Made by a program: the position numbers and the translations under genes. The notes beneath the pieces were generated by a model. The model saw only the letters and a program-made list of their open reading frames with translations, made no database searches and had not been told where the DNA came from. DNA of 64,000 nt from Stylophora pistillata. Its lineage: Eukaryota. This document shows positions 28,549 to 29,460 of the stretch, piece after piece. How positions within the stretch are numbered: position 1 is the first letter of the stretch; every line of letters begins with the position of its first letter. The stretch spans positions 127,682 to 191,681 of the forward strand of contig NW_019218012.1 of the NCBI RefSeq assembly GCF_002571385.2, written 5' to 3'.

Positions 28549-29460
28549 ATGGGGGAAATGGATGAGCTACCACTGCAAGAAATGAGTCAACTTTGGAAAA
28601 ACGAAGAGTACAGGCGGTACCTTACGATTTTCGAGAAATGGCTTCACGAAAGCGATTGGTCTGCATATCGTTCCCTAAGGGATGAAGACAAGCAAACTAT
28701 TCGAGACCAATCATGTAAAGCTTTGAGTCGTTTAACATACCTTTGGAAGTCTCACAATCAGGAAATTCATTGTCTGATACAATCTATTTATTACTCATCT
28801 GTAAAAGTCAAATCATTCACCATCCGGGAATTGCAAGTAATTGCATACAACGAGTATTTGAGACGTATTCTTTGTAGAGAAGTCATGAGGTTTGTCGATA
28901 TCAGCATTCCACAATTCATAGAGGCCTCTGAATTCCTGCTAGAAGAAACATTCTTAGAACAGCAAACATTGAAAGTGGAGCAGAACTTGAGGCAGTGTAA
29001 CAACAGACCGTCAGATGGTGATGACTACATTTGTGCTTTACAAAGGATCTCCGTTGAGTTCATGGAAACGCTGTACATATATCCATTGACTGATGATTAT
29101 GCGTATCCTGAACGTGCCGGTGTCTACTTTATATATTATATTGGTAAAACTGCGCTATATGACGGAGAAGTCAAGCCTTCCATAGCCAGGCCGATTTACG
29201 TAGGAAAGTCGAAAAAGAATATCTCAGAGCGCCTTAAGGACCACCGCGAAATGATAGAACGTGCTGTAGACTTAGAGGTGGACGATTTCATTGTTCGACT
29301 CATGTTAGTGGACATTAAATTCTACGCTGGCTGTATTGAGGAAATGCTTATAAATTACTTCATGCCTAAGTGGAACAAGGAGAGGGCATGGCTCTCTTTT
29401 GGGAACGCTAGAAGCGAAACAAACAGTTGGAACAGGTATCATATTCAAAACATAAGATAA
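28549..29460 (+). CDS. Eco29kI/Cfr42I-family GIY-YIG endonuclease-like protein, copy 1 (303 aa; unknown helical N-terminal domain)
   Basis: Intact single-exon ORF. Motifs AGVYFIYYIG...LY...PIYVGKS...ISERLKDH...LEVDDFIVRL...IEEMLINYFMPKWN...SFGN...SWNRYH occur in the same order as in R.Eco29kI (GVYALYYTG, PIYVGKA, RIREH, DFSCRF, VEAALIKIYKPLWN, GFGN, WDVIH; recalled from memory). Confidence 0.88.
   Translation: MGEMDELPLQEMSQLWKNEEYRRYLTIFEKWLHESDWSAYRSLRDEDKQTIRDQSCKALSRLTYLWKSHNQEIHCLIQSIYYSSVKVKSFTIRELQVIAYNEYLRRILCREVMRFVDISIPQFIEASEFLLEETFLEQQTLKVEQNLRQCNNRPSDGDDYICALQRISVEFMETLYIYPLTDDYAYPERAGVYFIYYIGKTALYDGEVKPSIARPIYVGKSKKNISERLKDHREMIERAVDLEVDDFIVRLMLVDIKFYAGCIEEMLINYFMPKWNKERAWLSFGNARSETNSWNRYHIQNIR

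Follow-up and report, generated by a model that had tools for sequence, protein, structure and literature searches.

An Eco29kI-type restriction nuclease family of stony corals carries a helical N-terminal domain that may license DNA cutting

Restriction enzymes are thought to be prokaryotic because a methyltransferase is needed to spare the host. When an animal nucleus encodes a restriction-type nuclease that is expressed, is expanding and has intact catalytic residues but no adjoining methyltransferase, the question therefore arises of what spares the coral genome. Here, we examined such a family in Stylophora pistillata (GCF_002571385.2, contig NW_019218012.1, forward strand, positions 127,682–191,681); the whole stretch of DNA analysed, 64,000 nt in length, is referred to as the window. 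The obvious candidate for sparing the genome is a new N-terminal domain (N-domain) fused to the nuclease. Our leading, still tentative, reading is that a horizontally acquired nuclease was turned into a defence effector, the cutting of which would be licensed by this helical domain, and it is from comparison and modelling that we infer this role.

The composition of the window was that of animal DNA (37% GC, LINE reverse-transcriptase pieces, and host genes split over several exons). An Eco29kI-type GIY-YIG nuclease gene was present in it as three paralogues, all on the + strand, and one relic, in a cluster downstream of a POGLUT1-like glycosyltransferase 90 host gene (8940–14680, +). This gene lies outside the system and anchors the cluster; it was identified by Pfam and by an exon-by-exon match (63–94% amino-acid identity) to the upstream flank of the metagenome locus L002. 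The relic of a fourth copy (15538–15621, +) retained the first ~30 N-terminal codons followed by a stop. Copy 1 (28549–29460, +; 303 aa) had a non-coding first exon at 22756..22852 (5' UTR, + strand, start approximate), placed by a polyA splice joint; copy 3 has a homologous first exon near 51341–51446. Copy 2 (38881–39759, +) had intact active-site residues and a 5' end cut by a LINE reverse-transcriptase piece (37800–38880), which replaced its first ~39 codons and ended near 38880. Copy 3 (53059–54060, +) was 100% identical to the C-terminal part of P0004, which is XP_022795150.1 of S. pistillata. Since the flanking blocks of copies 1 and 3 were 70–86% identical and their first exons homologous, whole transcription units appear to have been duplicated. 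The segments around these two copies (18077–37113 and 44446–58712) aligned in colinear blocks of 70–89% identity, and the two proteins were only ~42% identical (30% in the N-domain), the coding sequence being apparently more diverged than the flanks. Broken copies were common in the family, and some copies came with the same contig size (three at 593,511 and two at 155,510). The last exon of the POGLUT1-like gene also opened loci L005 and L010; that the same host gene adjoins the family in divergent genomes points to a single ancient insertion followed by expansion in place rather than to a mobile element.

Several other features were observed in the window. A zinc transporter gene (Cation_efflux, ZT_dimer) lay at 5260–7537 (−), and a 1308-base near-perfect palindrome (99.4%) at 19788–21095, beside a single N, was either a foldback element or an assembly artefact. 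Transposon pieces at 31107–31613, 32732–38933, 42021–43298 and 48045–48515 comprised weak DDE_Tnp_4 (Harbinger-like) matches and several LINE reverse-transcriptase fragments, and one stretch among them, with no Pfam hit, resembled a restriction-like retroelement endonuclease. A broken Pox_A32-type packaging ATPase (60321–60989, −; Pfam E 5e-9) lay 6 kb from copy 3, and an open reading frame at 62022–62600 (+) gave no Pfam hit and resembled a Maverick/adintovirus penton; together these are likely an endogenous Maverick-like relic. A viral vector for the family was considered on account of this A32-type ATPase, yet nothing ties the relic to the family. The window held a single CCGCGG, a count that is uninformative on depletion.

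Transcript evidence came from three polyA RNA runs (X18, X15 and X19) and one DNA run (X10), all as assembled contigs that carry no expression levels. X18 contained a GT..AG joint from 22852 to 28411 for copy 1, X15 another joint that led to this acceptor region, and X19 covered the coding part with no joint among those listed; no such splice joint was found in the DNA run. Copy 1 is spliced in polyA RNA and is thus a host gene rather than contamination, and a contaminating or bacterial contig was ruled out by the LINEs, the intron-bearing host genes, the spliced transcript and synteny. The bacterial-type restriction nuclease is therefore fixed as a spliced coral gene family, a larger point that the preliminary description of this locus had missed. 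The spliced 5' UTR of copy 1 (22756–22852 plus 28411–28548) contained four upstream ATGs in ~235 bases, which could dampen translation. Hosts were identified for two stony corals, S. pistillata and Desmophyllum pertusum. As the latter is a coral without algal symbionts, the family is not solely about symbiont control.

The nuclease of copy 1 (29032..29460, +) was assigned by Pfam, fold match and active-site alignment. Pfam RE_Eco29kI (PF09517) covered only residues 189–277 of copy 1 (E 1e-13), with scores of 51.9 bits for copy 1 and 56.6 bits for copy 2 relative to a curated cut-off of 30.8, and the predicted nuclease matched the Eco29kI structure in Foldseek (E 8e-7; Z 12.8, rmsd 3.5, 144 aligned residues). 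The active-site residues given for Eco29kI in the relevant passages of PMC1952068 (Y49, Y76, R104, H108, E142 and N154) corresponded to Y193, Y217, R228, H232, E264 and N276 of copy 1, and all six were present in 28 of 31 full-length members. We had also considered R86 as a recognition residue and dropped it, R86A being fully active according to the same passages. Relative to prokaryotic homologues, the YIG strand and the catalytic Arg were set apart by 7 residues in 30 of 31 coral members (10 in the other) compared to 19–25 in all 81 measurable of 89 prokaryotic sequences, and the spacing from FG to the last Trp was 8 in 27/31 compared to 14–17 in 84/89. The stretch after the second GIY-YIG strand is described as an extended DNA-binding loop in the section of PMC3384342 bearing on it. 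This loop and a GNHDPG-type segment that would read bases, both conserved in prokaryotes, were thus deleted in the coral members. Acidic repeat insertions (EEQTD-like, ~30 to >200 aa) directly after the catalytic-Arg helix marked one subfamily (L005, L006, L008, L009, P0035, P0044 and P0046).

The prokaryotic comparison consisted of 89 Eco29kI-like loci (80 of 81 GTDB matches kept and 9 from IMG/VR, including phage), which were chosen by two short patterns and are a sample of the family rather than its entirety. A methyltransferase motif lay within 3 kb in 76 of the 89, and annotated methyltransferases adjoined the nuclease in the four named prokaryotic examples; a motif search found no C5 or N4/N6 methyltransferase motif in the window or in 14 coral-type loci. 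The coral-type patterns retrieved no relative from IMG/VR or GTDB. One sequence caught by the coral pattern, L015:3-1092, was an ordinary bacterial pair, the end of a methyltransferase-like gene and an Eco29kI-like gene. A tree of nuclease domains (17 coral-type, 8 prokaryotic) placed the coral-type sequences on one side of a long branch (99), and the closest prokaryotic matches were only ~27–41% identical. Because the distribution is patchy, we infer transfer of the nuclease from a prokaryote or phage to corals, and a bacterium or phage is the likely source of the family. A Penelope-like or other GIY-YIG mobile element was rejected, as none of the 31 full-length members contained a reverse transcriptase, the adjacent reverse-transcriptase pieces were separate LINE fragments, and the cluster was fixed beside one host gene; a retroelement GIY-YIG family was likewise set aside, the nuclease matching Eco29kI instead.

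AlphaFold2 models and alignment placed the helical domain of copy 1 at residues 1–133 (28549..28947, +). It was all-helical and well folded over residues ~7–133, with predicted helices at 9–17, 21–34, 37–42, 45–67, 71–86, 90–107, 111–115 and 120–133. The full-length model (17 sequences) gave pLDDT 84.7 and pTM 0.84, in which the two domains are predicted to pack as one body, and residues 1–151 folded alone gave pLDDT 80.6 and pTM 0.74. A homodimer prediction, run without an alignment, scored 0.01, which is uninformative on dimerisation in either direction. Three residues (H74, Y81 and Y103) were invariant in 31/31 members and S99 was present in 30/31. The preliminary description had reported a pattern shared by the N-termini of all three proteins; the LxxLWKS..H..IQ..Y, N.Y...[IV]LC and [LI].VE motifs were indeed present in all three copies of the window, but LxQLW..Y was absent from the LINE-truncated copy 2. 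It had also extended the domain to about residue 160, an end that must be moved back to near residue 133 (~28947), and had read LKVEQNL as a probable coiled segment. In the full-length model this LxVE segment (residues 134–150; 28948..28998, +) instead formed a short strand bridge and an 8-residue helix, likely docked on the nuclease, and its confidence dropped to pLDDT 42–57 when the N-terminus was folded alone. Since it was confident only with the nuclease and was retained in P0014 and P0015, both of which lack most of the N-domain, it likely belongs with the nuclease. The variable acidic linker described before LQ(R/K)IS was recovered at residues 151–161 (28999..29031, +), variable and partly acidic (pLDDT 64 for residues 151–160), and LQRIS was the start of a helix that aligned with the first helix of Eco29kI.

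The N-domain, which the preliminary description could not assign to a known family, resembled none in the libraries searched. Across ten N-termini, Pfam returned 14 weak families, each in 1/10 and none in more than one, and NCBIfam and PHROGs (residues 1–151) returned 0/10 each; PADLOC matches fell on the nuclease, except for three weak ones for P0051, and searches of PDB sequences and of the ESM Atlas gave, respectively, nothing clear and no usable match for the N-domain. Structure prediction and Foldseek, which the preliminary description had suggested, yielded a confident helical fold and no clear match: searches of the PDB and of viral models gave no Foldseek match at E 0.001, and the best fold matches were generic helical repeats (Cep104 TOG and designed repeats; Z 9.7, rmsd 3.2), a score that was tied among unrelated helical repeats and within the helical-bundle background. 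Death-fold or other known immune sensor domains were absent among the best 50 fold matches listed. These missing library and fold matches do not prove the N-domain to be a new fold. Net charge of the N-terminal part ranged from −6 to +11 across the ten members, and a crude hydrophobicity scan found no strong stretch, which is against a secreted or membrane role. A basic run (KSKKKKG-like) between N-domain helices, which could be a nuclear localisation signal, was seen in L001:1377-2459, L007:1741-2649, L010, P0040, P0043 and P0049.

A profile of the ten N-termini, which recovered held-out sequences beyond chance (P0026, E 2e-40; L001, E 3e-29), was searched against 1.84 billion representatives. 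It matched 32 sequences, of which 20 carried the nuclease or part of it, 11 were short pieces (84–180 aa) and one was a repeat artefact, so that the profile search proposed in the preliminary description returned the fusion or its fragments in 31 of 32 cases; none of the 32 joined the N-domain to another partner domain. In P0051, two tandem N-domains preceded one nuclease, and N-only products recurred (P0030, with four members all of 167 aa, and P0037). The expectation that this region differs from the N-terminus of ordinary bacterial Eco29kI homologues held, as a deeper N-domain profile found it in 0/89 prokaryotic and phage loci (best E 1.6), while 38 plasmid and 8 phage matches covered the nuclease part only and the N-terminal extension of the bacterial protein P0017 had no similarity to it (probability 0.2%). 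A weak search for longer fused forms found none at 983–2805 aa, the range of 584–982 aa being covered by the N-domain profile search only. The N-domain is thus genuine; the searched libraries do not describe it, and it is restricted to the coral-type Eco29kI-derived nuclease family. Two members departed from the usual arrangement: in P0014 the N-domain was absent, the LxVE-LQ.IS unit was duplicated and the catalytic Arg was kept, and in P0015 an internal deletion of the N-domain occurred together with replacement of the catalytic Arg by Asn.

Compared to the nuclease, the N-domain evolved faster. In single-omega codon fits, omega for nine genes was 0.72 in the N-domain versus 0.37–0.39 in the nuclease, and for six metagenome genes 0.81 (not distinguishable from 1) versus 0.46. 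The nuclease is under purifying selection (omega 0.37–0.46), and relaxed constraint accounts equally well for the N-domain values of 0.7–0.8. Between copies 1 and 2, omega was ~2.0 in the N-domain (bootstrap 1.1–3.9, Fisher p 0.04) versus 0.40 (0.25–0.63) in the nuclease; this value of ~2 was picked post hoc as the highest among the well-aligned pairs of 55, and the pair includes the LINE-broken copy 2. Synonymous divergence between the same copies was 0.21 in the N-domain versus 0.69 in the nuclease (p 0.0004), which suggests a mosaic gene. The N-domain and nuclease trees of 31 proteins rejected each other (AU p 6e-5 and 0.004), and the N-domain looks to have been swapped between paralogues; the test set the best tree of one domain against that of the other, nodes were weak and there were not enough replicates. 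Some pairs showed no difference in omega between N-domain and nuclease (L002–L006, 0.41 vs 0.47; L006–L009, 0.49 vs 0.57), the nuclease values of L013 being set aside in these comparisons because they include frameshifted codons. In 12 sequences closely related to P0026, variation was spread evenly, the N-domain holding 13 and the nuclease 12 of the 28 variable sites. Among the alleles listed for copy 1, seven of eight coding sites were in the nuclease and one in the N-domain, a distribution opposite to that predicted for a diversifying sensor. All ten variant letters at these eight sites changed the amino acid (p 0.09–0.14 against neutrality, not significant), and the changes clustered at residues 269–293 (29353–29426), where residues 279 and 280, immediately ahead of the FGN motif, each had three alleles.

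The mechanism that we favour, and that the preliminary description had anticipated in proposing a regulatory N-domain, appears plausible from these comparisons of sequence. Without its own sequence-reading parts, the nuclease would be quiet, or bind poorly, in its default state. A protein trigger or partner, either pathogen-derived or a host signal, would be bound by the helical, solenoid-like domain, and this binding would free or assemble the nuclease, which would then cut DNA with little sequence preference, so that invader DNA or the infected cell would be destroyed. In the manner of sensor-effector immune genes, the paralogues would be likely to diversify the helical module and to trade it among themselves. 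Such licensing would fit the intact active site without a methyltransferase nearby, the obligate fusion, the faster evolution and the apparent exchange of modules, and it may also fit the joint loss of most of the N-domain and of the catalytic Arg in P0015. The gene turnover is of the kind typical of conflict genes, and a defence DNase controlled via its N-domain is the simplest account. We counted against licensing the survival of the catalytic Arg in P0014 after loss of the N-domain, as well as the lack of any matching sensor fold (best Z 9.7).

Loss of the DNA-gripping loop means that the nuclease may be weak alone, in which case the N-domain would be an activator or targeting module rather than a brake. 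It would then serve as a constitutive scaffold replacing the lost DNA-reading loop and dimer contacts, and would direct the nuclease towards a DNA structure or host complex, such that its loss would kill activity. This is the strongest of the alternatives, though we consider it unlikely. In its favour, the two segments conserved in prokaryotes are missing throughout the coral members, the model of the whole protein forms a single compact body (pTM 0.84), and SLX1, also a GIY-YIG nuclease, is inactive until bound by SLX4 in the passages of PMC8287910 and PMC4407285 that concern it. However, a net charge as variable as that of the ten N-terminal parts gives no sign of a conserved DNA-binding surface, and high omega and gene turnover would be unusual in a fixed scaffold. 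Licensing is favoured over constitutive activation or targeting because the N-domain has no consistent charge and evolves faster. The expression of copy 1, found in polyA assemblies of several studies (six runs recorded as RNA), and the homologue in D. pertusum could also be explained by a housekeeping nuclease that repairs DNA or clears the DNA of dying cells or symbionts, with the N-domain a plain protein-interaction tag. We regard this as improbable, since tandem gain and loss, an omega far above that of typical repair genes and the uniformly amino-acid-changing coding alleles of copy 1 (10/10, not significant) all speak against it.

Slightly less probable again is a selfish toxin-antidote gene, kept through drive and not because it benefits the coral, in which the nuclease is the poison and the N-domain or its N-only truncations the antidote. 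Descent from a restriction system, fast turnover, the abundance of broken copies and recurrent N-only products such as P0030 and P0037 are what it would predict, but most N-only pieces look like frameshifted genes, toxin and antidote would be hard to separate in a single chain, and the family keeps its position next to one host gene across divergent loci and shares a 5' exon that the host splices. We give least credence to a strict restriction enzyme that reads a short CpG-containing site, with coral CpG methylation as the self mark and an N-domain that merely stabilises; a CpG does occur in CCGCGG, and cytosine methylation impedes Eco29kI in the portion of PMC10855626 that treats it. The allelic changes around the FGN motif would also suit this reading, but the nuclease has lost its DNA-binding loop as well as the GNHDPG-type segment. 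Moreover, invertebrate DNA methylation is patchy, which would leave many host sites unprotected.

Relative to known systems, the family shares with R.Eco29kI, Cfr42I and DraR1 (type IIP, PF09517; PDB 3mx4 and 3nic) its fold and six active-site residues, the helix insertion region between the GIY and YIG strands and the PxWN..FG..W..H tail. It differs from them in the extra 130-aa helical domain, the shortened DNA-binding loop (7 instead of 19–25) and FG-to-W spacing (8 instead of 14–17), the lack of an adjoining methyltransferase, and in being encoded by spliced, tandemly arranged genes of a eukaryotic nucleus. Type IIP enzymes such as Eco29kI and Cfr42I cut CCGC/GG as a dimer or tetramer. SLX1-SLX4 has a conserved single-copy repair role. 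In the sections of the SLX1-SLX4 papers bearing on it, this complex likewise has a GIY-YIG core dependent for activity on another, helical module, but it belongs to another GIY-YIG branch and its partner is a separate protein. HEAT/TOG/ARM-like solenoids likewise consist of stacked helical hairpins (Z 9.7, rmsd 3.2); with background-level scores, identity <14% and no sequence match, a claim of homology is not possible.

Prokaryote-type defence genes in marine invertebrates likewise include OLD-like nucleases, GT4/TRADD-N expansions and cGLRs. The part of bioRxiv 10.64898/2026.08.18.745644 on OLD-like nucleases describes a bacterial anti-phage enzyme, present and expanded in cnidarians, with a proposed immune role, and GT4 and TRADD-N expansions in corals are reported in passages of PMC8195603. 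These families have other folds, and the OLD-like genes are spread over many eukaryotic groups, whereas the present family was identified here in two stony corals and its gained domain was found nowhere else. A functional restriction-modification system in a protist mitochondrion, where bacterial restriction genes were acquired by a eukaryote, is the subject of PMC8099122; unlike that system, the coral gene is nuclear, belongs to an animal, has no nearby methyltransferase and is fused to a new domain. A search of mostly open full texts found no paper describing the family, which a table of coral horizontal transfers could nonetheless list, and the portions of PMC3417536 and PMC3482391 covered do not mention it.

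A fuller account, which we consider possible though on balance doubtful, is that stony corals captured a bacterial restriction endonuclease, shed its sequence-reading loop and added a newly evolved sensor domain that the paralogues diversified and swapped, making a trigger-gated DNase arm of innate immunity. If the N-domain is indeed a gate, the family would represent a new route from bacteria to animal immunity and a new sensor fold, would be a candidate in coral disease and in the control of symbiosis, and would offer a small (~300 aa) switchable nuclease.
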